64,000 nt of DNA from Nitrospirota bacterium (lineage in GTDB: Bacteria > Nitrospirota > UBA9217). The notes under the pieces were generated by a model. The model was not told where the DNA came from and made no database searches. It saw nothing but the letters and a program-made list of their open reading frames with translations. The stretch covers positions 608,785-672,784 of the forward strand of contig CAWBNQ010000003.1 in assembly GCA_963790205.1 (NCBI GenBank), read 5' to 3'. Shown here piece by piece: positions 10,141 through 58,479 of this stretch (positions are counted from its first letter, which is position 1; each line of letters opens with the position of its first letter). The translations under genes and the position numbers were made by a program.

Positions 10141-10476
10141 GTGTGAATTATACAGAGGGGAAACTTCAGAGTCAAGGTTCTTTTGAGCCCGGAAACGCCT
10201 GAACAAAAGGAAGCGCGGTCTCGACATCAGGCAGAGGGGGCCGATCGTCGCCGCCTGGCGAACATCCGGCAGGCGGACGCGGGACACCTCCTCGGCCGGA
10301 CCGGGAGGCCGTTTTTCAACACGCGGCAATTGGCGCCATGCTCAACCATGCCGTGCGGCCACGCGGTGCGGCGGTCGTTTCTTGACGGGGATTATGTACT
10401 TGCGGAGACCGGGGGAAGGGATAACGATAACACACGGGTGAGCCCCGCTATGCGGGACTCGTACCCGCAGGTTGAA

Positions 10477-11551: not shown

Positions 11552-11604
11552 AGTTAACGAGTTCACGCGCCGCGAAGCAGTCGGCGTGGAACGACAGGTT
11601 ATGC
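11552..11604 (-). other. attC site (distal-most, abutting the chromosomal rsgA).
   Basis: AGTTAAC ... internal imperfect palindrome ... GTTATGC, ending at the stop of the last cassette ORF. Confidence 0.5.
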
Positions 11605-12837: not shown

Positions 12838-12894
12838 GGATAACACGCGGCTGACGCGCCGCACGGCGCGTCGCAGTCGAGCCGCAGGTTGGTA
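12838..12894 (-). other. attC site.
   Basis: GGATAAC ... GACGCGCCG/CGGCGCGTC stem ... GTTGGTA, 8 nt before the antitoxin stop. Shares the core GCGCGTCGC(T/A)GTCGAG with other attCs. Confidence 0.7.
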
Positions 12895-12901
12895 TCCCGA
12901 A

Positions 12902-13213
12902 TCAGCTGTGAGATGCTGCTGCATGCAGTTTCAAGCCGAGCGCATCCATGACCTTGAGGATGGTATCGAAACCGGGACTGCGTTCGCCGGAGAGCGCTTT
13001 ATAGAGACTTTCGCGTGATAAACCGGAGTCACGCGCGACCTGCGCCATCCCTTTTGCACGGGCAATATCGCCCAGTGCCTTGGCAATGAATGCAGCATCG
13101 CCGTTGGCCTCCTCAAAACATGCCTCAAGATATGCGGCCATTTCCTCCGGGGTGCGAAGATGTTCGGCAACATCGTACCGTGTTGTTTTGGTTTTGGCTT
13201 TTGTCTGGCTCAT
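12902..13213 (-). CDS. Addiction-module antidote protein (HigA-like HTH antitoxin).
   Basis: Resembles the 'probable addiction module antidote protein' family (TIGR02684-like). It lies downstream of, and 9 nt from, the toxin gene. Confidence 0.7.
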   Translation of the reverse strand: MSQTKAKTKTTRYDVAEHLRTPEEMAAYLEACFEEANGDAAFIAKALGDIARAKGMAQVARDSGLSRESLYKALSGERSPGFDTILKVMDALGLKLHAAASHS

Positions 13214-13222
13214 AATGCCCTC

Positions 13223-13513
13223 CTACAGATTGTGTGCGAGGCGTAACGCTGTCTTGATATCAGCGGCCTGAGTGCGTTTATCTCCACCGGCCAGCAAAAT
13301 TATCAATGTACGGCCTCGCATCGTGTAATACACCCGGTATCCGGGACCATAGTCGATTCGCAGTTCCGAGACACCCTCACCGACTGGCTTAACGTCACCA
13401 GGATTCCCCGTGGCTAAGCGTTCGACGCGAGCCTGCACGCGGGCGCGTGCATGAATGTCGCGCAGGCCATCAAGCCACTTAGCATATGTATCAGTTTTTC
13501 GGATTTCGAGCAT
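13223..13513 (-). CDS. Addiction-module killer protein (RelE/ParE-superfamily, HigB-like toxin).
   Basis: 96 aa. Resembles the 'putative addiction module killer protein' family (TIGR02683-like). Toxin-first (HigBA) order. Confidence 0.7.
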   Translation of the reverse strand: MLEIRKTDTYAKWLDGLRDIHARARVQARVERLATGNPGDVKPVGEGVSELRIDYGPGYRVYYTMRGRTLIILLAGGDKRTQAADIKTALRLAHNL

Positions 13514-13520
13514 GAATGTA

Positions 13521-13538
13521 TTGTAGCCTTATGGCTAC
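13521..13538. promoter_or_regulatory. Perfect palindrome TGTAGCCttaTGGCTACA just upstream of the toxin start: candidate TA operator.
   Basis: A 7-bp inverted repeat with a 3-nt spacer, immediately 5' of the toxin start codon. Confidence 0.4.
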
Positions 13539-13840
13539 ACATTGTCAATATTTTTCAATTAGGTTAATGTGCAACGTTATCAAAAGACAGGCAGGATAAT
13601 GAAGGCAGTGAATGACGTAAAGGACACAACGAATATCCAGAACCAGATTCCTATTTTCCCATCTTTACGTCGCGTGATCGCGATATAGTCAAAGATATTC
13701 TATAAAACTAGCAAAGTAATTGCTCTTCCCTGTCTCATTTCGAGCAATAGTCGAAATTCGCATGGCTGAGATTCCGGCAGCAATGGCGGAGAGCCATTTT
13801 ATGATTTGAATGAGAATCATGATGTTTTAGACTAATGCGG

Positions 13841-13936
13841 GGCTGAGCCATGACCCCTTGGGGTCATTGGTCTCCAGCTCCTGGTTCTCCCGGCGCGTTT
13901 TTCGCGCTGGGAAGGAGCGCATGGCTCAGCCCCGCA
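13841..13936. repeat. Long structured palindrome: 19-bp perfect inverted repeat AATGCGGGGCTGAGCCATG around a nested imperfect palindrome.
   Basis: Read directly. No ORF. It lies between the TA cassette and the next attC. Confidence 0.5.
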
Positions 13937-14490: not shown

Positions 14491-14521
14491 TTGTCACCAA
14501 ACCATGATCAAATTATTTCCC

Positions 14522-14581
14522 GATTAACACGCGCCTGACGCGCCGCCTTCGGGCGCGTCGCTGTCGAGGCGCTTGTTAGGC
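14522..14581 (-). other. attC site (best-formed).
   Basis: GATTAAC-ACGCGCC ... GGCGCTT-GTTAGGC are near-perfect reverse complements, with central GACGCGCCGCCTTCGGGCGCGTC. It lies 33 nt before the SIR2 gene stop. Confidence 0.8.
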
Positions 14582-14614
14582 TACCTTTCCTCTTGTCATG
14601 TTCGAACTAGATGT

Positions 14615-15748
14615 CTAGTGGGCTTTTTTGATAGCTACGTATTCTTCGAGCGTTTTGTAGTATTTCAGATCATGGCCACGGAATATGCTAGCATAACGTT
14701 TCTTCAGTTGGGAGCCCCGCTTGCAAGCAGCTGGATTCACCACGTCGATTTCAATCTTTGTAAATTTTGGCTGTGGTCGCATTTCTTCAACAAGATAATT
14801 AATTTGCCGAAAGAGCCATTCAGCGTAGCAGTCAGTGGAGGGAAAAGAATAACCTATAAAGACAAGTCTCCTGCTTTGCTGAAGTTTTCGCCTAGCGATT
14901 TTCCACTGGCGGTTGTAAAGACTGTTCTGATGAATTTCAATTTTTTCTGACACAGGAGGGATGATGTTTATCTCCATTACGGAATTGCAAGACTTACACT
15001 TAGGATAATCAGCAAGTGTTATTTCCGCGATGTTTCCTTTTTTACTTCTTATAAATGTGTTTGTCTTCTTTGATTTGCATTTATCGTTTCTGCATGTTGC
15101 CCAGTTTAATGACCCATGAAGCTTCAAATAAACAGGGGCAGAATAGTAGGTTGTTATCCGGTTGTGACCTGTTATTAGTGCGACATAATTCTTAAAATGT
15201 GCTTTGTCATGTTTTTCAAGTGTAACATCTGCTATTGTGTCCCAATTGAACGAAACCACAGTGTCGAGATCAGACAAATCTCCGAACAGCCTTTCTAAAT
15301 ATCCACAGTATTGTCCGTAAGACCGCATGGTAAGCATCAATGTGATGAATCGCACAAGACTTCTTTTCGCTTCAAGGAAGACTTTTTGGTACGCACTGCC
15401 TTTAGGGTACATCTTTGTCCCAATGTCGAAATGAGTAAAAACACTTTCAATGTTCAAACCTTTCCAAGTGCTACCATCATAAAAAGAGCGCGTGTCGTCT
15501 AGTTTGTATGTTTGGTGCAAAAGAAGATTGAGCCCTTCATGTGTAGCTCCAAGCAAATTTAAGAAATTGGTACCCGTTGCGCCGTATTCTTTGTCGGAAA
15601 CCAATATGTCATAAAAGAAATTATCACCAGAAGGCATTCGCCGATCTCGAAGCCAGTCGTCCGATTCCGGCAGCCGTTTAGCTCCAATTGATGCACCGGC
15701 ACCGAGTATATACATCGTTCCGCGATCGTCATTATCTATAGCCATCAA
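14615..15748 (-). CDS. SIR2-like (SIR2_2/DHS-like NAD-binding) domain protein with a C-terminal Cys4 zinc ribbon.
   Basis: N-terminal MYILGAGASIGA, characteristic of the SIR2_2 family. C-terminal CRNDKC...CKSC. Cassette location. Confidence 0.6.
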   Translation of the reverse strand: MMAIDNDDRGTMYILGAGASIGAKRLPESDDWLRDRRMPSGDNFFYDILVSDKEYGATGTNFLNLLGATHEGLNLLLHQTYKLDDTRSFYDGSTWKGLNIESVFTHFDIGTKMYPKGSAYQKVFLEAKRSLVRFITLMLTMRSYGQYCGYLERLFGDLSDLDTVVSFNWDTIADVTLEKHDKAHFKNYVALITGHNRITTYYSAPVYLKLHGSLNWATCRNDKCKSKKTNTFIRSKKGNIAEITLADYPKCKSCNSVMEINIIPPVSEKIEIHQNSLYNRQWKIARRKLQQSRRLVFIGYSFPSTDCYAEWLFRQINYLVEEMRPQPKFTKIEIDVVNPAACKRGSQLKKRYASIFRGHDLKYYKTLEEYVAIKKAH

Positions 15749-15788: not shown

Positions 15789-16529
15789 TTAGTCGGCAGA
15801 GTCGATCTTTATAGCTTCTTCAACTCGTCGGCACAACAAACTGGAAAGAACGAGGTATTGGGCTGCAACGTTCTGAGTTGGATTAATAGTAAGAGTATGT
15901 GCTTTCGGATTTCTTACTCCCTGATATACGCCTTGAAGAATCTGGATAAACCCCTTCTGATCGTTACAACCGGACTCTGTTTCCAAAGATGAAAGGACAA
16001 GAACTGGTCTTTGCAAGGAAAATGTTGCGGCAACAAGTTCGGGACCATCCTTGTCAATTCCTGTGCGTTCTCGAATAAAATCAAAAACTGTAACAATGGA
16101 ATTTAAAACAGCATCCCTAAAACGACCAGCTCTGAAGTGGGCATATGAAGCCGCAGTTACTCTCGGATGTAGAAGGTCTAGGATTGAATAGCTAAGGTCA
16201 GAGTAGGGTTGTGATGAAAAATAGTCATCTATTGCATCCTCTAGTTGTGTTATTAGCTCTAGGATGCTCCAATGCGAACCCCTTTCGTCAGCAGCGATAT
16301 GATGTAAAATATCCTTAATTTTAGAACTATCAAGTCCTTTTGGCCAAATACGCTCAAGATCTCCAAGTGACCGCACCAATAGGCTTGTAAGTGAGCCGGT
16401 CGCATAGCCTTCGCCCTCATTGAACTTCGCATCCATAATTTCTCGTGTGGTTGCTTGGATGGCCCGAAGTGATCTGTTTATTGCTATGTATTTTTCTATC
16501 ATATATTTCCCTTGGCGACAGGCTGTCAC
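15789..16529 (-). CDS. Hypothetical protein, possibly Hypoth_Ymh/Abi-like (C-terminal RNPKAH motif).
   Basis: 246 aa. The C-terminal GVRNPKAHTL resembles the conserved motif of the TIGR02391 family. Weak. Confidence 0.3.
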   Translation of the reverse strand: MTACRQGKYMIEKYIAINRSLRAIQATTREIMDAKFNEGEGYATGSLTSLLVRSLGDLERIWPKGLDSSKIKDILHHIAADERGSHWSILELITQLEDAIDDYFSSQPYSDLSYSILDLLHPRVTAASYAHFRAGRFRDAVLNSIVTVFDFIRERTGIDKDGPELVAATFSLQRPVLVLSSLETESGCNDQKGFIQILQGVYQGVRNPKAHTLTINPTQNVAAQYLVLSSLLCRRVEEAIKIDSAD

Positions 16530-16576: not shown

Positions 16577-17416
16577 TTAGCGCGCATCTTGGCTTGGTTC
16601 CGGGTTATCGATTTGTTCAACTGTGACGGTTGCAGCTATAGCGTTCCATGCATCAAGCATCCAATGTGGTAATTGGTCATGTCGTTTTACCGATACTCGC
16701 GCATTTGCGTATGGCATGTGAGGTAAGAGGACGGTTCTAACAATGAGAGTGTCTGGATTGACTTGAATTGGGGCGATGAGATCAGGTGACTGGGTGATGT
16801 TTTCTCGACTCTGCATATAGAGTGGCACAAGGTAGTTCATTCGCCCGTAATACCAGTACGGAAGTTGCAAGCCTCGATTAATTGACCACTGAATAGCCCC
16901 AGATACAGCGCACATCTGCGAAACCGGGGGCGTTTGTCCTAAAAAAGGTACGCGATCTGAATTGTCTCTGAGTATGTGGTCATGAAGCATGACGATCTCA
17001 GCTCCGCATGGCAACGCTGGCGCTGCTGGTAAATCAGGCGGCGTTGGTAGTGCACCGGCAGAGATATCGGAGCCGACGTGAACGCAGTAAAGAGGCCCAC
17101 GCCCTGCATTGGTGTTCCTCTCAAATACCATGTAAATTGGCGTCCCGTATCGCGTCTGTAAGTGTCCGGCGGTGACGAATAATTGGTTACTACTGGTGGT
17201 GTATCGATCTTGCTCGATGCTCCAAGCGATATGGACAGCAAGATATTTCTCAAGAACGTAGTTGTCGTTTCCCCAATTTTCAGAGAGGGCTGTACTGCTA
17301 AGCGATGAAAAGATGCGTTGCGGGATTTGGGCAAGGCGTCGCAATCGAACTACCACTTCGTTTGTGAATGGATCTCCTAATGCGGCCGATAGTTCTTCTT
17401 TCGTGAATGACATCAA
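16577..17416 (-). CDS. Hypothetical cassette protein.
   Basis: 279-aa ORF with a TTG/ATG start. No recognised domain. Confidence 0.35.
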   Translation of the reverse strand: MMSFTKEELSAALGDPFTNEVVVRLRRLAQIPQRIFSSLSSTALSENWGNDNYVLEKYLAVHIAWSIEQDRYTTSSNQLFVTAGHLQTRYGTPIYMVFERNTNAGRGPLYCVHVGSDISAGALPTPPDLPAAPALPCGAEIVMLHDHILRDNSDRVPFLGQTPPVSQMCAVSGAIQWSINRGLQLPYWYYGRMNYLVPLYMQSRENITQSPDLIAPIQVNPDTLIVRTVLLPHMPYANARVSVKRHDQLPHWMLDAWNAIAATVTVEQIDNPEPSQDAR

Positions 17417-17839: not shown

Positions 17840-17930
17840 TCAAGGGTATAACATGGAAAAGCCTACTATAAATATCCACTAATTGCAAGAATTTCAATGG
17901 GGTATCGCGGGGTATTGAGGCCGGGGTATT
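17840..17930. promoter_or_regulatory. Putative attI region: GGGTATAAC core-like site plus three GGGGTAT(T/C)G direct repeats abutting the intI start. Pc is expected here.
   Basis: Direct repeats at about 17899, 17909 and 17923. It lies between the first cassette ORF start and intI. Confidence 0.35.
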
Positions 17931-19378
17931 GCTAATTCGATATATTCCCGGTATGCCATCCTGTATGGAACCCATCCCCCCGGATACCCTTGCTCGCTTT
18001 AACAACTTCATGAAACGGCATAATGTCGCCCCTCTTTGCCGGTCCGATTACCGGAAGTGGCTCCGCTATTTTCTCGACTTTCGCGCCAAATATTCTCTGC
18101 CCGACCCTCATACCGATCAAGTGAAGCTGTTTGCGGAAAAGTTGCGGTCGAAGAATCAAACCACGGCGCAGGTAAAACAGGCGACTGATGCGATCTCGCT
18201 TTATTTCTCTCTCCAGCCTGAAATTGAAATTGTCTCTACGACGGGGCTCATGCGGCGTCAGGACCGGACGGAGGAACAACGTCTGTCGGAACGGCGCTCT
18301 TCCCCGGAGCAGTCTCCTGAGTTGGTCCGTGAGCCTCCCGGACTTTTGCAGGCCCAGCCTCCCGTCAGATCAGGCAGGCGGTATGACGAATGGCGTTGCC
18401 TCAGAAAAACCGCGTCACCTGCGTGGGACGGGGTGATCGGAAAGCTGGCCGAGGAAATAAAGGTCCGGCACTATTCCCGCAAAACACTCAAACACTATGC
18501 TGATTGGATCAGAAAATTTCAGAATTACCTGAAAGACAAAACACCCGGGGATCTGTCCTCGCAGGATGTCAAAGAGTATCTCACTCATCTGGCCGTCTAA
18601 GGAAGACGTCTCTTCAAGCCACCAGAATCTCGCATTCAATTCTCTGCTGTTTCTGTACAGGCACATCCTGAAGAAGGACTTTGGAGATCATAAAGATGTC
18701 CCGCGCGCGAAGACCTCGAACTATATCCCTGCGGTTCTTTCCCGCAAGGAGATCGATTCGGTTCTGGTTCATCTCAGACATCCCTTCAGGCTTGTGGCCC
18801 AGCTCCAGTATGGCTGCGGGCTGCGCATTTCCGAGGGCTGCCAGCTGCGCGTCAAGGATTTTGACTTCGATACGGGTCTCCTTAGGGTGCGGGGAAAGGG
18901 CGACAAAGTACGGACCGTGCCGCTGCCGAAAACGCTCCTCACGGAACTTCATGCCCAGTTGGAGCACGTGAAAAAACTGCATGAGGAGGATCTCACAGCG
19001 GGTTTCTCCGGGGTCTTTCTCGACGATCAACTTGAAAAGAAGTATCCGCGGGCCGCGAAGGAGTTTGTCTGGCAATGGTTTTTCCCGCAGGAGTCGCTGA
19101 CTTTCATCGCTCAAACGAAAGAATCGCGGTGCTATCATGTGCATGATTCGCGGATGCAGGAAGCTTTCGGCGAAGCGGTGCGCAAGGCGAAACTCACAAA
19201 GCGCGTCACCTCCCACACCTTCCGCCATTCCTATGCAACCGCAATGCTGCAGGCCGGTTACGATCTCCGCACGATTCAGACGCTCCTTGGCCACGCGGAC
19301 GTCAGGACCACGATGATCTATCTGCACTGCCTCCCGCCAAAACCCGGGAAAGAGGTAAAAAGCCCGTTGGATTTCTGA
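17929..19378 (+). pseudogene. intI: Integron integrase IntI, split into two ORFs by a +1 frameshift at about 18590. It carries an about 150-aa N-terminal extension.
   Basis: The IntI-specific patch is present: LEKKYPRAAKEFVWQWFFPQ ... HDSRMQEAFGEAVRKA. Catalytic RxxR, HxxR and Y are present: HTFRHSYATAMLQAGYDLRTIQTLLGHADVRTTMIYLHCL. ORFs 17929..18600 and 18566..19378 are in different frames. Confidence 0.85.
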
Positions 19379-51373: not shown

Positions 51374-52379
51374 TCATTCTTCTTTCAACTCTCTGGACAT
51401 AAGGTCTCTTACCGCCCGTTTCGGGTCCTTGCCCTCGTACAGGATCAGATAGACCTCATCCACGACCGGCATGTCGACGTTGAACTTTCTGGCCAGGTCC
51501 CGGGCCGCCCGGGCCGTCTTCACGCCTTCGGCCACGGTCTTGACGCCCTTCATGATATCGTCCAGCTTTTCACCCTTGCCGAGCCGCACGCCGAGCGTCC
51601 GGTTGCGCGACAAACCTCCCGTGCACGTGAGCACCAGATCGCCCATGCCGGCGAGACCGGAAAAGGTCTCGAGGTTGCCGCCCATGGCGACGCCGAGGCG
51701 GGCCATTTCTGCTAAGCCCCGCGTGAGCAGGGCCGCGGCGGTGTTGTAGCCGTAGCCCATGCCTTCGAGCACGCCGGCCGCGATGGCGACGACGTTCTTG
51801 AGCGAGCCGGCAAGCTCCACGCCGATGACATCGGGATTGGTATAAATGCGGAAATAGGCGTTGCTGAAGATTTCCTGCGCTTTCCTGCCGAGAGCGGGGT
51901 CGTACGAAGCGAGAGAGACCGCGGTGGGCATCTTTTGCGCCACTTCTTTGGCGAAGCTCGGGCCGGAGAGGAAGCAGAGCCGGTTATGATACTCGTTTCG
52001 GCAGGATGTCCCTGAACACTTCCGAGAGCGGCATAAGCGTGTCGATCTCGATTCCTTTCGAGGCGCTCACGAGGACCGTATCGTCCGACAGAAACGGCGC
52101 GAATTGTCCGGACACGGCGCGCACGGTGTGGGAGGGGACAACGGAAAGGATCACAGCCCTGCCCGCGACGGCCGCTTCCATCGAAGCGGTCACCTTGATC
52201 GAGGCGGGCAGGGTGAACCCGGGCAAATAGACCCGGTTCTCCCGGGTGCGCGACGTCTCCTCGGCCAGGTCCTTCTCGTACATCCAGAGGGTGACGTCGT
52301 GCCCCTTGTCCGCGAGCAGCATGGAAAGGGCCGTGCCCCATGCGCCTGCGCCGATTACCCCGATTCTCTCAGTCATCAT
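51374..52379 (-). CDS. gpsA: Glycerol-3-phosphate dehydrogenase [NAD(P)+], split by a frameshift near 51950-51985.
   Basis: N-terminal IGVIGAGAWGTALS Rossmann motif (ORF 51984..52379) and C-terminal GpsA domain (ORF 51374..51943) in different frames. Confidence 0.8.
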
Positions 52380-52496: not shown

Positions 52497-52558
52497 AATG
52501 GGGCGGATGCGCGGATGAGCCGCGTGTTTTTCGCGGCGGTCTCGATCCGCTCGTTATG

Positions 52559-52559
<1 letters not shown>
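52497..52559 (-). other. attC site (terminal, next to gpsA).
   Basis: GCGGATGAGCCGCG ... CGGCGGTCTCGATCCGCTC-GTTATGC, ending at the stop of the RibD_C-like ORF. Confidence 0.5.
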
Positions 52560-53107
<548 letters not shown>

Positions 53108-53136
53108 TACGTAAGAGTACCTCTAATCATAGGTCA

Positions 53137-53195
53137 GCCTAACACGGTGTTGAGGGGCGGTGATTTTCCCGCCCCTCTCGGACACCAAGTTATAT
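53137..53195 (-). other. attC site.
   Basis: GCCTAAC-ACGGTGTTGAGGGGCGG ... CCGCCCCTCTCGGACACC-AA-GTTATAT. The TAA stop of the upstream ORF is embedded. Imperfect stem with extrahelical bases. Confidence 0.75.
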
Positions 53196-53768
53196 CACAC
53201 TCACGAGTAAACGTAATATCCAATAAAGTGTGAATGACGCACCAATGAAAATTAATGTCCAAATTAAAGCGATAAGCCATTTTGATAATTGTACCGTTGG
53301 AATGACGGTGATAATTTTAGCCAAACCATCATCAGACTTTGCATAAGCATTGATTTTATCCCAAGTTGTAGGAGGAAAATATAAATATGAAATGGTAATT
53401 TGTTCTTTCGGAACTAAAACAGGTATAAGTAATTCTCCAGAACCATCATCGTTACGCTCAACGGAATATTTGATCTTTGGGAAAACGGTGATATTAGGTG
53501 GTAAATAATTATGTCCAACTCTGACGTTGTGGGCTGATTTATTCCCGGCATTGCGAAGGATAATGCTATGAGTAAAGACGACGGTCTTTTGAGCATCTTG
53601 AAGAGTAAAAGAAGATATATGGCCTATATAGGAAACGAGTTTTGATCGTGTTTCTGTGTAGTATTTAATAATTGTTCCGAGGAGGAGCGTAATGATTGGA
53701 GAGAGTAATTTAAGAATTTGTTCGGTTGTCATAGAACCTCCCTTATCGTGTCCGCAATGTGGGTCCAT
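53190..53768 (-). CDS. Hypothetical membrane protein (cassette).
   Basis: N- and C-terminal TM helices. AT-rich. Confidence 0.35.
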   Translation of the reverse strand: MDPHCGHDKGGSMTTEQILKLLSPIITLLLGTIIKYYTETRSKLVSYIGHISSFTLQDAQKTVVFTHSIILRNAGNKSAHNVRVGHNYLPPNITVFPKIKYSVERNDDGSGELLIPVLVPKEQITISYLYFPPTTWDKINAYAKSDDGLAKIITVIPTVQLSKWLIALIWTLIFIGASFTLYWILRLLVSVI

Positions 53769-53860
53769 TGTTATGCAAAAAGAAGTAATTTCAAATGACC
53801 CTAATGTAAAAACAACAGATTGCGAATGCCAAAAATGCGGCTGGTCACAATATCACTCAC

Positions 53861-53913
53861 ATATAACGCGCCGGTCACGCGCCGCTTTTTAGCGCGTCGC
53901 TGTGGACCGGCAG
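53861..53913 (-). other. 5' portion of an attC site interrupted by the group II intron.
   Basis: ATATAAC-GCGCCGG ... GCGCGTCGCTGTGGACCGGCAGG matches the attC family consensus up to the core. The intron sequence begins in place of the TT(RRRY) core. Confidence 0.6.
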
Positions 53914-55866
53914 GTGTACGCTCGGCACGGGCGTGAGCTAATGGGGTGCAAGTCCTCTGTACGAGAACCAGAGTAGCACAAGTACCAGCCCAAGGCAAGG
54001 GCGGAAGGGCGACCGACCGTCTGAAGGAAGCCTAACGGCAAACGTGCGAGCCGACGGACAGAAACCGCATACAAGGCTTAGCCCTCGGGTGAGTCAGCAC
54101 CACATGACGAAGCCCACTGGTTCAGGGGATAGGGTAAATGCGGCGGTTGCGCACGGACAGTTCACGTTCTTATCCGGGGAGATCTGCGCGACATGCGATA
54201 GGATCGTCATGAGAGAATCCGGGACGGGTCAACCCGGCAAGCAAGGCCCCGGCGTATCAGCGGCTGTCGCCTGATACGAGTCCCGCTTTCGGGAGATACG
54301 AATCAGACAGCATCTCATGCCGAACCCCTGTAGCGCCTTCTTTGGAAACAGAGACGGTGAGCGCGCAGAAGTCAGCAGACGGCATAGTAGTCCCGGACTA
54401 CTCGGGACGAAGGCCAGAACGCGGAAAGGAGGAAGGGCAATCCATAAGCTCTGGGACGGTGATGAGTCCGACACGGATGAGCCGATCCGGGCGCGTTATG
54501 GAGAGACAGCCCACTCGAATGACCACAGTGGAAGACGTTGTAGGCAGTGAGAACATGCAGCAGGCATGGCAGCGGGTCAAGGCGAACAAGGGAGCAGCCG
54601 GCATCGACGACATGTCGATTACGGACTATCCCGAATTCGCCAGGACCAACTGGCCAAGAATCAAAGCCTCCTTGCTGGACGGGACGTATGATCCCACTCC
54701 GGTCAAGAGGGTCGAGATTCCGAAGGACAACGGGGGTACGAGGCTTCTCGGCATCCCCACGGTCTCCGATCGCGTTATTCAGCAAGCGATCACCCAGGTG
54801 CTTGTCCCGATCTTCGATCCCCACTTCTCCGAATCGAGCTATGGGTACAGGCCGGGCCGCTCGGCGCATCAGGCTGTAAAGAAGGTGGTTGAGTTGATCA
54901 ACCAAGGATACCGCTACGCCGTTGACATCGATCTTGCGAAGTTCTTCGATAACGTCAATTGGGACGTGTTGATGAGCCGGGTCGGTAGACGCGTCACGGA
55001 CAAGGGCATCCTCAAACTGATCGGCAAATACCTTCGGGCCGGAGTCGTCGTAAACGGCAGGCTTACCCAGACCACCAAAGGAGTGCCGCAGGGCGGGCCG
55101 CTTTCGCCGTTCCTGTCGAACATTCTTCTGGATGATCTCGACAAAGAGTTGGAGAAACGGGGGCATCAGTTCTGCCGGTACGCCGACGACCTTATCATTC
55201 TGGTAAAGTCAAAGCGTGCCGGAGAGCGGGTGATGAAGAGCGTCACCACCTTCCTTGAAAAGAACCTCAAGGTGCAGGTGAACAGGGACAAGAGCAAGGT
55301 GGGAAGCGCGGAGTCCAGCATCTTCCTCAGCTTCACGTTCCATCTCAAGAGGCCCACTGTCTCCCGGAAGGCGTTCACGAACTTCAAGAATGAACTCAAG
55401 GACCTTACGGGCCGCAGCTGGGGTGTATCCATGAAGCACCGATACGATAAAATCCGGACCTACTTACAGGGCTGGATGAACTATTTCGGAATCGGTATGC
55501 GGTACAACGATGCGGTCGAACTGGATCAGCGGCTCCGAAGACGCATTCGGATGTGCTATTGGAAACAGTGGCGCACGACGAGAAAGCGCGTCGGGGAGCT
55601 GATGAAACGCGGGGTGAGTGAACATCGCGCAGTATCGGTCGGCATGAGCAGGAAGAGCTACTGGCATCTTGCTAAGAACGAAGCCATCAATGTCGGCCTG
55701 TCCAATGCCTATCTCAAGGAACAGGGGCTTACCTCGATCAGAACACTGTGGATCAAGATTCACCATCCGGCTACGGCCCGATAGTTTTCTGCGAATCGCC
55801 TAGTGCGGACCCGCATGCTAGGTGGTGTGGGGGCTGGGGGCTAAACACCCCCGGCTACCCGATTAA
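53914..55866 (+). mobile_element. Group II intron (attC-associated, class C-like), antisense to the cassette genes.
   Basis: A structured 5' region of about 430 nt with no ORF. The RT/maturase ORF lies in the domain IV position. DV/DVI-like hairpins at about 55805-55860, ending about 8 nt before the next cassette ORF stop. Confidence 0.7.
54342..55784 (+). CDS. Group II intron reverse transcriptase/maturase (RT domains 0-7 plus X; no En domain).
   Basis: The YADD motif (FCRYADDLIILV), RT blocks (PQGGPLSPFLSNILLDDLD) and a maturase/X region. The probable real start is an internal Met near 54500. Confidence 0.9.
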   Translation: METETVSAQKSADGIVVPDYSGRRPERGKEEGQSISSGTVMSPTRMSRSGRVMERQPTRMTTVEDVVGSENMQQAWQRVKANKGAAGIDDMSITDYPEFARTNWPRIKASLLDGTYDPTPVKRVEIPKDNGGTRLLGIPTVSDRVIQQAITQVLVPIFDPHFSESSYGYRPGRSAHQAVKKVVELINQGYRYAVDIDLAKFFDNVNWDVLMSRVGRRVTDKGILKLIGKYLRAGVVVNGRLTQTTKGVPQGGPLSPFLSNILLDDLDKELEKRGHQFCRYADDLIILVKSKRAGERVMKSVTTFLEKNLKVQVNRDKSKVGSAESSIFLSFTFHLKRPTVSRKAFTNFKNELKDLTGRSWGVSMKHRYDKIRTYLQGWMNYFGIGMRYNDAVELDQRLRRRIRMCYWKQWRTTRKRVGELMKRGVSEHRAVSVGMSRKSYWHLAKNEAINVGLSNAYLKEQGLTSIRTLWIKIHHPATAR

Positions 55867-55873
55867 AATATGC

Positions 55874-56767
55874 TCATTTAGATTTCCAACTTATGCGGCG
55901 CAATAGGACGCCATCGTCAAGAGCGATAAGGTGATAAATATCTCCCTCTGAATCCACTGCAAATCTTTCATCGAAATTGCCCCGATATCTAATTTGAATT
56001 GGCTTTTCAATTTTCTTGGATTGCACATCACCATTAATTTGGTATTGTATCTTTATGTTTTTGTCCTTATTTTCGATTTGTACAGTTGTCGTTATTGCAT
56101 AATTATTCTTTCGAGAGTTATTAGATTTGATGCGATAAAAAGTCCCTTCTTTGTCATACCAAGAGAAATGATCATGATTTGGATTCTTTACATATTTAAG
56201 GAAATTTCCATCAAAATCATAAACTGCTGACTTTCCCGATCCTCCAATAACACAAGTAACATGGCCCATCTGTTCATCGCTGCTTATCTCAGAAAAATAC
56301 TCTTCTGTCTTCGGGTTAAGCTGCTGAGCGCCAAATTTATTTAATATCTTGCCACCGGAGGATATTTTGTAAATATCGTCATTCAGCATATTATAATAAG
56401 GTGGCTTTGCTATGAGGGCGAAGAAGTTGTCATTCAAAATAGCGAATCGACCAGCAAGTCCTTGTTTGATCCAATCGAAACCGAGAGGGATCTTTCTAAT
56501 GAACTTACCGTTTAAGTCGAAGACTTGAATTCGGTTATTCATAGAATCGAAAATATAAATATGACTTTTGTAAAGTTGAAAGTCTAGCGAATAGCCCAGT
56601 TCCGTTTTGCCAAGAGTTTCTCTACCAAATTCGCCGTCTTTGTCGCCCCAATTACCAACGATTAATATGTTGTCACTGATATTAGGGCCGCAAAATGCGG
56701 GCGAGGTATATAAACTGCAAAAAAGAACGATGATCATGACGTATTTCAGAACTTTCATGAATACCAC
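55874..56767 (-). CDS. Secreted protein with NHL-repeat-like beta-propeller motifs (cassette).
   Basis: Signal peptide. IYIFDSMNNRIQVFDLNGKF-type repeats. Confidence 0.4.
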   Translation of the reverse strand: MVFMKVLKYVMIIVLFCSLYTSPAFCGPNISDNILIVGNWGDKDGEFGRETLGKTELGYSLDFQLYKSHIYIFDSMNNRIQVFDLNGKFIRKIPLGFDWIKQGLAGRFAILNDNFFALIAKPPYYNMLNDDIYKISSGGKILNKFGAQQLNPKTEEYFSEISSDEQMGHVTCVIGGSGKSAVYDFDGNFLKYVKNPNHDHFSWYDKEGTFYRIKSNNSRKNNYAITTTVQIENKDKNIKIQYQINGDVQSKKIEKPIQIRYRGNFDERFAVDSEGDIYHLIALDDGVLLRRISWKSK

Positions 56768-56787
56768 CTTTGATGAGCTTTTATTCG

Positions 56788-56847
56788 GATTAACGCGCGG
56801 GTGAGACGCGCGTATTTTGCGCGTCGTTCTCGACCCGCAGGTTGGGT
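56788..56847 (-). other. attC site.
   Basis: GATTAAC-GCGCGGG ... GACGCGCGT...GCGCGTCG ... CCCGCAG-GTTGGGT. It abuts the TGA stop of ORF 56847..57677. Confidence 0.75.
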
Positions 56848-57677
56848 CATTTGTCGAGTTTCGTTCCGCTCAACCCGTCCTGCGAACTCTTTTTAAAGAT
56901 ATTCATCATTTGCTCGATCATGCCCTTATTATTTTTTGCTTCAACAGTCATAAACTTATATGCCTCGTTTTCTGGATGAATGCTTGTGGAAATTAGCAGT
57001 TCGCTATTACTCTGTGTCAGTTCAGGTGAAAGTTTGAAAAATACTCTGTTCGGATGGCGTCGTTTATCTAACGAAAGAGTTATGCTAATGTTTGGAAATT
57101 GAAGCACCCAGCCATTGACACTTTGGCCGTCTCTTGCGGTATCCATCGGCTTTATTTTCTTTCTATAAGGCAGAAAGAAGGCACTATGCAGCGGGTCTGT
57201 CAGAAAAAAGACAAAAACATCTATATAATCAACAGCGCCACCATTATACAAGTCATTTCTTATTTTTTGCTCATAAAAACTACCGACGGAGAGTGATCGC
57301 ACCTCAAGTTGCTTTGATACACTGACACGCCACAAGACAGATGCAAAGAACTTTCTTAGTTTTGTTTTGTCGATATCGTTGAACACACATAGTTTCGTAT
57401 CTTTAGCGTCCGGGTGTGATACTCGGTCAAAGAGGCCTTGCTTGTCTCTCAATACTTGAATTGCATAAGCATCGAGTGGTTCAAAAATACCATGTTCGCA
57501 ATCCGGACACACAATTTTGTCATCGTAGATTGCTTTCTGTAATCGACGCCCTCTTTCACCCGATGAGTCATAGGTTTCAACCTTTCCCTTAGTTTCAATG
57601 TTACTAAAAAAACCAATGGAGAAGATATGAGCCTTAGCCATTTTATCTTTCTCATTTGTGCACAAGAGACACTTCAT
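56847..57677 (-). CDS. Hypothetical protein with N-terminal CxxC...CxxC/His zinc-finger (possible HNH-like).
   Basis: MKCLLC ... AKAHIFS ... VCPDCEHG. No confident family. Confidence 0.3.
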   Translation of the reverse strand: MKCLLCTNEKDKMAKAHIFSIGFFSNIETKGKVETYDSSGERGRRLQKAIYDDKIVCPDCEHGIFEPLDAYAIQVLRDKQGLFDRVSHPDAKDTKLCVFNDIDKTKLRKFFASVLWRVSVSKQLEVRSLSVGSFYEQKIRNDLYNGGAVDYIDVFVFFLTDPLHSAFFLPYRKKIKPMDTARDGQSVNGWVLQFPNISITLSLDKRRHPNRVFFKLSPELTQSNSELLISTSIHPENEAYKFMTVEAKNNKGMIEQMMNIFKKSSQDGLSGTKLDK

Positions 57678-57681
57678 TTTT

Positions 57682-58164
57682 TTACTGAGGGTTGTATCCT
57701 TTTAAATAATTAGTAACCGCCACATAATTATCCATCCACATCATAGCAAACTGAACAAGTGTCATGGGATTCGGCTCGTCAATACCAATTTGAGTTAACC
57801 ATGCTTTGGCCCAATGAATTCCATTGCCCGAATTCCTCGACTTTAACAACTCGGACACCTGGTCCATTGTCGCTTTTACTTCAATGACAAAAGGATAGCC
57901 CTCCACTATATCGGGAGAGAAGACTATCTTTTCAAGGAACTCCCTAACGTGCCGAAAGTTTGCATTTTTATCTTCTAAAGCAAGAAGTGCCAATAAGACC
58001 AGTGCCAATTTATGAAGCACAACCTTATCTTCAAAAGACGGAGAGAGTACCCAATTTGTATTCAACTTGAACCGAGAGTTTATATCTTTGTTCATGATAA
58101 AGTCGGAGAGAAGTACATCCGCCAAAATATTAGGTTTTATTTTTTTCTTACCGATGTCAAACAT
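57682..58164 (-). CDS. Hypothetical protein (same cassette as 56847..57677; 4-nt gap).
   Basis: 160-aa ORF. No recognised domain. Confidence 0.3.
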   Translation of the reverse strand: MFDIGKKKIKPNILADVLLSDFIMNKDINSRFKLNTNWVLSPSFEDKVVLHKLALVLLALLALEDKNANFRHVREFLEKIVFSPDIVEGYPFVIEVKATMDQVSELLKSRNSGNGIHWAKAWLTQIGIDEPNPMTLVQFAMMWMDNYVAVTNYLKGYNPQ

Positions 58165-58214
58165 AACGTATTTTATGATACCTTTTTTATTATTTGGCTT
58201 AGTCCAATGTTAAG

Positions 58215-58247
58215 GCTTCTTTCTGAACGCTTTATTCAGAAAGAAGC
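58215..58247. repeat. Perfect 13-bp inverted repeat GCTTCTTTCTGAA(n7)TTCAGAAAGAAGC, followed by GTTGGAC.
   Basis: Read directly. Possible degenerate attC or terminator at the cassette-cluster edge. Confidence 0.4.
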
Positions 58248-58479
58248 TGGTTGGACAAAGCCGTTGCGCGCCACGTCGCTATGGGATTTCGAATAATTTT
58301 TCAGTTTAAAGCGAAGTCCGCGGAAACGACATTGGCAGGGGCGTGAGACTTGTTCGGATGAAAAGCGGCGATTCCGGACTGCTCCGCAAGCCCCTTTCGT
58401 AAATGACTATACAGGAAAAAGAGCTTTTGGGCAATAGCGTCTCGTTGCGAAAGACATGGCTGTTTTCGGGGAGTGGGAG

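Follow-up and report, generated by a model that had tools for sequence, protein, structure and literature searches.

Group II introns of class C that target the attC sites of integrons (IIC-attC introns) are a monophyletic subset of class C, which holds the integron-borne introns (PMC3001079). They are defined by insertion into the bottom strand of an attC, within its R'' box and with the consensus TTGT/T, and by an orientation antisense to the gene cassettes (PMC7923331, PMC3001079). According to the model of Leon and Roy, IIC-attC introns form cassettes, and the model predicts an intron between the stop codon of a gene and an attC hairpin (PMC7923331, PMC3001079). The published examples are mostly from Proteobacteria, both from mobile integrons and from the chromosomes of environmental bacteria. 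The element described here is a group II intron inserted in an attC of a Nitrospirota bacterium, on contig CAWBNQ010000003.1 of assembly GCA_963790205.1. The whole stretch of DNA that was analysed, 64,000 nt in length (positions 608,785 to 672,784 of the contig), is called the window, and all coordinates refer to it. A preliminary description made from the letters alone had proposed such an intron at 53861-55873.

The window intron is an ordinary addition to the described IIC-attC family. Its ribozyme and its intron-encoded protein are intact, its exon-binding site 1 (EBS1) matches the intron-binding site 1 (IBS1) of the 5' exon, the insertion is clean and preserves the attC, the orientation is antisense, and relatives are present in different attCs. 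From the sequence comparisons, the element is most probably (a probability of about 90%) a complete, probably active member of the attC-targeting lineage of class C group II introns. The locus adds a well-defined, apparently intact member from a lineage abundant in Nitrospirota-type metagenome genomes. Its value beyond the textbook case is modest and concerns the natural covariation between EBS1 and attC and the Nitrospirota host range. For annotation, the intron accounts for a 1.9-kb block of high GC content (58%, like the host composition) within a cassette array of about 38-43% GC.

Intron boundaries, ribozyme and encoded protein

The edges of the intron were obtained from homologous copies, for which 80 loci with related reverse transcriptases (RTs) from species-representative genomes were compared together with two plasmid loci; these are cited below by their L numbers. 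Sequence similar to the 5' end of the window intron begins at one identical base in about 30 of these loci, with differing flanks. All homologous copies open with GTACGCC..., and the preceding exon base is T (in a few copies G), mostly within (T/G)(T/G)GT. On the other side, homology reaches its limit at ...CTACCCGAT, where the next base is T in all copies and purines mostly come after it. One copy, L030, aligns to intron positions 1-1948 with 89% identity and has wholly different flanks. These homology limits in unrelated flanks, together with the full alignment of L030, therefore define the intron as 53916-55863, and the extent first proposed had included the attC flanks. Its distance from the stop codon of the next cassette gene, initially estimated at about 8 nt, is 10 nt. 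The 5' end had been read as GTGTACG, which was rejected: GT represents the last exon bases and is part of IBS1, and the thirty homologous copies, known integron-borne ones included, start with GTACG. As this 5' end, instead of GUGYG, occurs throughout the clade of the window intron and in known integron-borne introns, it is not a defect of the window copy. No second copy or fragment of the intron was found in the 64-kb window.

The presence of a group II intron on the plus strand was confirmed by Rfam models of the ribozyme domains, two of which, D1D4-3 and D1D4-1, scored above their gathering thresholds (Table 1). The hairpins resembling domains V and VI (DV and DVI) in the preliminary description could be modelled at 55795-55861. 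They were missed by the whole-window Rfam search at gathering thresholds and recovered by a local search based on E-value, which gave a match to Intron_gpII at 55794-55863 (39.8 bits, E = 9e-6). The RNAalifold consensus of the last 78 nt from 23 copies contains 26 pairs in DV and DVI, 13 of them with compensatory double changes, and leaves A 55857 unpaired or bulged in DVI. In the Rfam alignment, AUCGCC of the window lies opposite GAGCCG of the model, and the middle G of the DV triad pairs with U in 21 of the 23 copies. In class C introns the catalytic triad of DV is CGC and not AGC.

Non-coding sequence of about 430 nt had been reported ahead of the open reading frame (ORF). This length holds as far as the TTG at 54342 (about 426 nt), which would give a protein of 480 aa, and increases to about 600 nt when the ORF begins at ATG 54519, the usual start of the homologues; a further in-frame start, ATG 54462, would give 440 aa. 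The start at ATG 54519 is the likeliest because homologues are mostly of the equivalent 421 aa and the alignment with the RT of GsI-IIC from Geobacillus stearothermophilus begins at residue 21 of the 440-aa form. The protein proved to be, as proposed, an RT/maturase with a YADD motif (within FCRYADDLII), a domain X and no endonuclease (En) domain. RVT_1 (1.4e-42) and GIIM (5.5e-15) are its only Pfam domains, and about 60 residues past the GIIM (X) match it ends where the GsI-IIC RT ends too. The best relatives with solved structures in the PDB are the GsI-IIC RT (3e-127) and the IIC RT from E. rectale (6e-109), while LtrA, of class IIA, matches at 4e-40 and retron or Drt RTs at 1e-8 or worse. 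The closest plasmid-borne relatives share 53-57% identity and are annotated as group II RTs within class 1 integron arrays.

A neighbour-joining (NJ) tree was built from 42 RTs (411 columns, 200 bootstraps), with the sequences of GsI-IIC, E. rectale and LtrA transcribed from alignments. The window RT is located in a clade of 25 taxa with L081 and L082, the integron-borne introns from plasmid and class 1 contexts, with a bootstrap of 74%, and apart from GsI-IIC. The latter groups with Brevibacillus introns (100%) inside a separate clade of 15 taxa (64%). In seven loci of the window clade (L001, L006, L007, L008, L009, L017, and L059), an IntI homologue is found 1-3 kb downstream on the strand of the intron. 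Among introns outside this clade with recoverable 5' ends, L025, L027, L029, L036, and L041 start with GUGCG after hairpins, and in four of the five a T-run follows the hairpin, resembling an intrinsic terminator. The tree agrees with the class C assignment given by the PDB matches. The placement in the IIC-attC lineage is supported moderately by phylogeny and also by target, orientation, and RNA signature, in agreement with the class first suggested.

A class C intron at L037 (1998-2040), which lies behind a hairpin with a T-run terminator and is placed with GsI-IIC in the tree, also starts with GUACG, so that this 5' end occurs outside the attC clade as well.

The interrupted attC and its recognition

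The insertion point is AGGT/T (GCAGGT/TAAAAT), so that the intron separates GT from T in the R'' box. The 5' exon retains the whole attC hairpin (R', L', loop, and L'') with two R'' bases, and only TAAAAT... lies beyond the intron, so that the 5' "half" of an attC mentioned in the preliminary description was an understatement. All the neighbouring cassette ORFs (52559-53107, 53190-53768, 55874-56767, 56847-57677, and 57682-58164) are on the minus strand and the intron is on the plus strand, which bears out the antisense orientation first noted. The extrahelical bases of an attC lie on its R''/L'' arm. The plus strand is thus the attC bottom strand, because the cassette ORFs are on the minus strand and the bulged bases of the hairpin are on the 3' arm. 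The IBS1, GGT, occupies 53913-53915. Over 53861-53915, the interrupted site shares 75% identity with an intact attC, 56791-56842, which lies between two minus-strand ORFs.

The uninterrupted attC was rebuilt by joining the flanks. The sequence ...GACCGGCAGGT joined to TAAAATATGC folds as single-stranded DNA at -17.7 kcal/mol. The fold has an AAC/GTT R box, spacers of 2 nt, and a stem whose 3' arm bears bulges of one base each, and the intact sites 56786-56852 and 14520-14585 share this architecture. The rejoined R'' box reads GTTAAAA, near GTTRRRY, and no target duplication is present. An nhmmer profile built from four attCs of the window detected nine in total, all in one orientation, at 10427, 11556, 12839, 13959, 14522, 52508, 53140, 53862 (the interrupted one), and 56788. 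This profile superseded a strict scanner for AAC...GTT hairpins, which gave only two window attCs. The same strict test found an R-box hairpin in 7 of 18 related loci, a figure that we attribute to the limits of the test and do not count against an attC context.

Table 1. Coordinates of the intron, its parts and the adjoining features in the window
Feature	Position	Strand	Details
5' exon, attC piece	53861-53915	+ (bottom strand)	R' box (ATATAAC), imperfect L'/L'' hairpin, first two R'' bases (GT)
Candidate P1out-like promoter	53970-53998	-	TTGCCT-N17-TACTCT; intron positions 55-83, complementary strand
Group II intron	53916-55863	+	1948 nt; 5' GUACG ... CCCGAU 3'
Domain I core	54003-54168	+	Rfam group-II-D1D4-3, 128.1 bits (gathering score 32), E = 5e-26
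EBS1 (assigned by covariation)	54099-54101	+	5'-ACC-3' in the 8-nt terminal loop GCACCACA of a domain I hairpin; pairs with IBS1 5'-GGU-3'
Domains II/III to base of domain IV	54334-54415	+	Rfam group-II-D1D4-1, 74.1 bits (gathering score 35), E = 2e-11
Intron-encoded protein	54519-55784	+	RT (YADD) and X/maturase; likeliest start ATG 54519, 421 aa
Domain V	55795-55826	+	CGC catalytic triad, G.U wobble; Rfam Intron_gpII and covariation
Domain VI	55828-55861	+	Bulged A 55857, presumed branch point
3' exon, rest of R'' box	55864-55873	+	T AAAAT...; IBS3 = T at 55864
Cassette ORF with the interrupted attC	55874-56767	-	297 aa; weak beta-propeller match (DUF5128); stop 10 nt from intron
Next cassette ORF in cassette direction	53190-53768	-	192 aa; no Pfam match
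Intact sister attC, unoccupied potential target	56788-56849	+	...GCAGGT/TGGGTCA, continues ...GCAGGTTGGGTCA

The EBS1 was located by aligning the first 480 nt of 30 copies and searching for columns complementary to the last exon bases. The columns at 54099-54101 are Watson-Crick complementary to exon positions -1, -2, and -3 in 28, 29, and 25 of the 30 copies, respectively, and no comparable covariation was found in this alignment at exon positions -4 to -6. By this covariation the columns are identified as EBS1, with the 3-bp pairing to IBS1 expected for class C. A hairpin lies directly upstream, and a short EBS1-IBS1 pairing with a stem-loop in place of IBS2 is a class C trait. Most copies have the combination ACA/TGT, ACC/GGT is found in the window intron, L055, and L001, and further pairs are CAA/TTG in L010 and L053 and ATG/CAT in L033 and L052.

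The IBS1 of the window intron is the variant GGT and not TGT. As six of the nine window attCs have GGT/T, the window intron fits the attC dialect of its host and not the general TGT/T. Since ACC fits most host attCs, other attCs in the genome are potential targets. That EBS1 has really been retuned to the attC variant of the host, without any involvement of cassette genesis, is about as likely as not. The two combinations, ACC/GGT and ACA/TGT, provide a natural pair of specificity variants for studying how class C introns read attCs, and also bear on whether introns track the attC dialect of the host integron.

Related introns and competing explanations

The relatives already described include the integron-borne IIC-attC introns of resistance plasmids, namely the Kl.pn.I3-type intron L081, those of the Pseudomonas putida class 1 integron L082, and S.ma.I2/E.c.I7. 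L081 is located behind blaIMP-4 on an IncN plasmid, a context in which the intron is named Kl.pn.I3 in the literature. L082 comprises two introns behind fosE and aadA1 beside intI1, and all three are antisense. The window intron is like this group in its antisense position right after the stop codon of a cassette gene, in its insertion at (T/G)(T/G)GT/T of the attC bottom strand, in its 5' GUACGCCC... and 3' ...CUACCCGAU sequences, in its RT-X protein without En, and in the position of the EBS1 loop. It differs from L081 and L082 in that its RT is only 54-56% identical and its EBS1 is ACC, not ACA, with GGT/T, not TGT/T, as target. Moreover, the array around it is far from intI and is not a mobile class 1 integron, probably being part of a Nitrospirota chromosome. 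In this respect it is like G.s.I1 of Geobacter sulfurreducens, known here from its published description, and other chromosomal IIC-attC introns, which are found in integron arrays or in clusters of attC sites lacking an integrase (CALINs) of environmental bacteria (PMC3001079).

Much closer relatives are found in metagenome-assembled genomes (MAGs) of Nitrospirota and Thermodesulfovibrionales (L001, L030, L055, L005; P0001-P0018), with the same ends and the same attC family. Their RTs are from 80% (L005) to 92% (L001) identical to that of the window, with about 90% for the listed metagenome proteins, and their nucleotide identity, across the whole intron, is 82-94%. The closest copies, in Nitrospirota MAGs, reach 88-92% in protein and up to 94% in nucleotide sequence. 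L001 and L055 share the ACC/GGT pairing. The MAG introns differ from the window intron in occupying other attC sites with other neighbouring cassettes, and L030 has ACA/TGT. Window 12841-13849 and L055 (2280-3290), a Nitrospirota MAG, have in common a 1-kb cassette and its attC, at 94% identity, and about 170 nt beyond this shared cassette L055 carries a 94%-identical copy of the 5' half of the intron in a different attC. The occurrence of 82-94% identical copies in different attCs (L055, L030, L001, and L005) points to recent mobility of the lineage among attCs.

In two MAG contigs of Thermodesulfovibrionales/Nitrospirae, several DV/DVI 3' ends occur within a few kb: L032 (360-437, 1855-1933, and 3452-3524) and L075 (49-127 and 3067-3145). 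This clustering suggests that introns were inserted more than once, or in truncated form, within a single array.

Several observations weigh against a full-length, active IIC-attC intron. The support for the attC clade is moderate (74%), the tree being a simple NJ one that includes few curated references, and the DV/DVI match is 0.2 bits below the Rfam gathering threshold (39.8 versus 40). In the rebuilt attC, the R-box pairing has a 3-nt bulge beyond AAC/GTT. The exact query for an empty site, GACCGGCAGGTTAAAATATGC, gave 0 matches in metagenome contigs, and no relatives of the cassette protein 55874-56767 were found in them, so that there is no true empty-site comparison. A scan with the sigma-70 consensus yielded no outward promoter inside the intron above threshold, and a count of candidates not above that in shuffled sequences. 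Splicing, mobility, and any influence on attC recombination or on the expression of the cassettes are inferences.

The alternative that survives best, although unlikely, is that of a dead relic, an old insertion which no longer splices or moves. This would be consistent with the single copy in 64 kb, with the five other GGT/T attCs among the profile matches that are unoccupied, and with the deviation of GUACG from GUGYG. The last point loses its weight as GUACG is clade-wide. An intact ORF with YADD and X, ribozyme elements that all score well, an EBS1 perfectly complementary to its own IBS1, and near-identical copies in different attCs of related genomes are all contrary to a relic.

There is a much smaller chance that an ordinary terminator-targeting class C intron, from outside the attC-specialised lineage, simply landed behind a hairpin. 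IIC introns generally insert after stem-loops, the GUACG intron L037 sits behind a terminator, and the RT identity to GsI-IIC (48%) is little below that to the integron-borne introns (54-56%). GsI-IIC and the Brevibacillus IIC introns are like the window intron in having a class C RT (48-51% identity), no En, and an insertion after a stem-loop. They differ in their GUGCG start, in their separate clade, and in their targets, GC-rich hairpins with a T-run that are intrinsic terminators and not attCs. The hairpin in the window belongs to a nine-copy attC family flanking minus-strand cassettes and has no T-run, and the insertion site is GT/T of R''. The tree places the RT with integron introns, seven of the relatives adjoin intI, and the first 50 nt and the last 75 nt of the intron are 84-85% identical to L081/L082. 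The GsI-like loci have no match to the 5' end and at most a weak, short match to the 3' end (E about 3e-4).

Comparably improbable is that the locus is a snapshot of cassette genesis as in the model of Leon and Roy, in which recombination between two intron copies would just have linked the beta-propeller gene 55874-56767 with a previously unrelated attC that belongs to the host family. The position of the intron, exactly between the stop codon of the gene (10 nt away) and the attC hairpin, is the geometry of the model, but an intron that simply inserts into the attC of a cassette already present yields the same geometry. The remnant of R'' in the 3' exon (TAAAAT) pairs with R' only via a bulge; against this, the rejoined flanks give a normal GTTAAAA R'' box and an attC fold like those of its neighbours. 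The window contains neither a second intron copy nor a fragment, the cassette is as low in GC as its neighbours, and the search of metagenome contigs gave no homologue of the gene in a different context with which to compare it. If cassette genesis were true, the ACC EBS1 would demonstrate a retuning of the lineage to the attC variant of the host. The link of such introns to cassette genesis is a hypothesis of the literature, and nothing supports it at this locus. Finally, an RT from a retron, a diversity-generating retroelement (DGR) or another non-intron system, favoured by the presence of an RT domain and nothing further, can be rejected with near certainty, as GIIM is present, ribozyme domains with a modelled and covarying DV flank the ORF, and retron or Drt RTs match at 1e-8 or worse versus about 1e-127 for intron RTs.

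Proposed insertion and cassette neighbourhood

For an IIC-attC intron as favoured here, the mode of insertion, by retrohoming, can be proposed from the biology of IIC introns (PMC3001079, PMC7923331). A ribonucleoprotein formed by the intron RNA and its En-less RT/maturase would recognise the folded, single-stranded hairpin of the attC bottom strand, which would replace IBS2. It would read three bases through the EBS1-IBS1 pairing (ACC with GGT) together with the first base of the 3' exon, T (IBS3). Reverse splicing would then take place at GT/T in the R'' box, and the synthesis of complementary DNA would be primed by host replication, because the En domain is missing.

Several consequences might be expected for the array. 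Since the intron is antisense to the cassettes, it should not be spliced from cassette transcripts. As the R'' box is split, the attC at 53862 is probably non-recombinogenic, which would fuse the two neighbouring cassettes into one unit; one attC of the window is accordingly flagged as probably disabled. Expression of 53190-53768 from upstream would require crossing of the antisense intron, and read-through into this cassette is probably attenuated. A weak outward promoter might partly compensate for this attenuation. In an alignment, the candidate promoter (Table 1) falls opposite TTGCCA-N17-TCTAAT of L082, from the P. putida integron. The published P1out examples have the same P. putida hexamers and, in G.s.I1, TTGCCG-N16-TACCCT, a weak promoter that was experimentally mapped (PMC3001079); the latter is similar to the sequence in the window. 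The window candidate is at the position homologous to P1out, yet it falls under the threshold of the consensus scan. Its -10 element is weaker than in the P. putida introns, and the P2out region of these introns is not conserved in the window intron.

The intron-bearing array extends from 52.5 to 58.3 kb, with a probable gpsA (51984-52379) at one side and genes for a GDSL-lipase and an M28-peptidase at the other. The only IntI homologue in the window, at 17929-19378 on the plus strand, is 43% identical to IntI1, has the domains Phage_int_SAM_4 and Phage_integrase, and carries a long extension at its N-terminus. Its coding sequence is broken into two frames near 18598 (stop at 18598-20), which probably reflects either a pseudogene or a sequencing frameshift. 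It faces and adjoins a first low-GC array of minus-strand cassettes (about 11.5-17.9 kb), whose attCs are those at 11556, 12839, 13959, and 14522. As no intI is adjacent to the intron-bearing array, the sole homologue being frameshifted and about 34 kb away, this array is a CALIN.

Some minor observations concern these arrays. The leftmost cassette of the 52508-58300 cluster, with a gene for a RibD_C-domain protein (52559-53107), differs from the other cassettes in being GC-rich. A small ORF on the plus strand (53692-53892, 66 aa) with a zinc-ribbon-like motif, CPQC...CECQKC (Zn_ribbon_ACC, 2.4e-4, sub-threshold), immediately precedes the intron, in the same orientation, and has its end within the loop of the attC; were it a real gene, transcription of it would continue into the intron. 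Where the second array has its upstream end, the plus strand contains at 58195-58262 a hairpin of 13 perfect base pairs (GCTTCTTTCTGAA...TTCAGAAAGAAGC) with TGGT/TGGAC after it, which may be a divergent attC or a site at the array boundary. The first array includes, on the minus strand, cassettes with a weak SIR2_2 match (14615-15748), a Hypoth_Ymh domain (15789-16529), and DUF3825 (16577-17416), which may represent defence-type cargo. The cumulative GC skew climbs over most of the window (1-64000), the plus strand being G-rich. This would place, as a weak inference, the attC bottom strands and the sense strand of the intron on the lagging-strand template, the placement expected for attC folding and for the insertion of introns without En.

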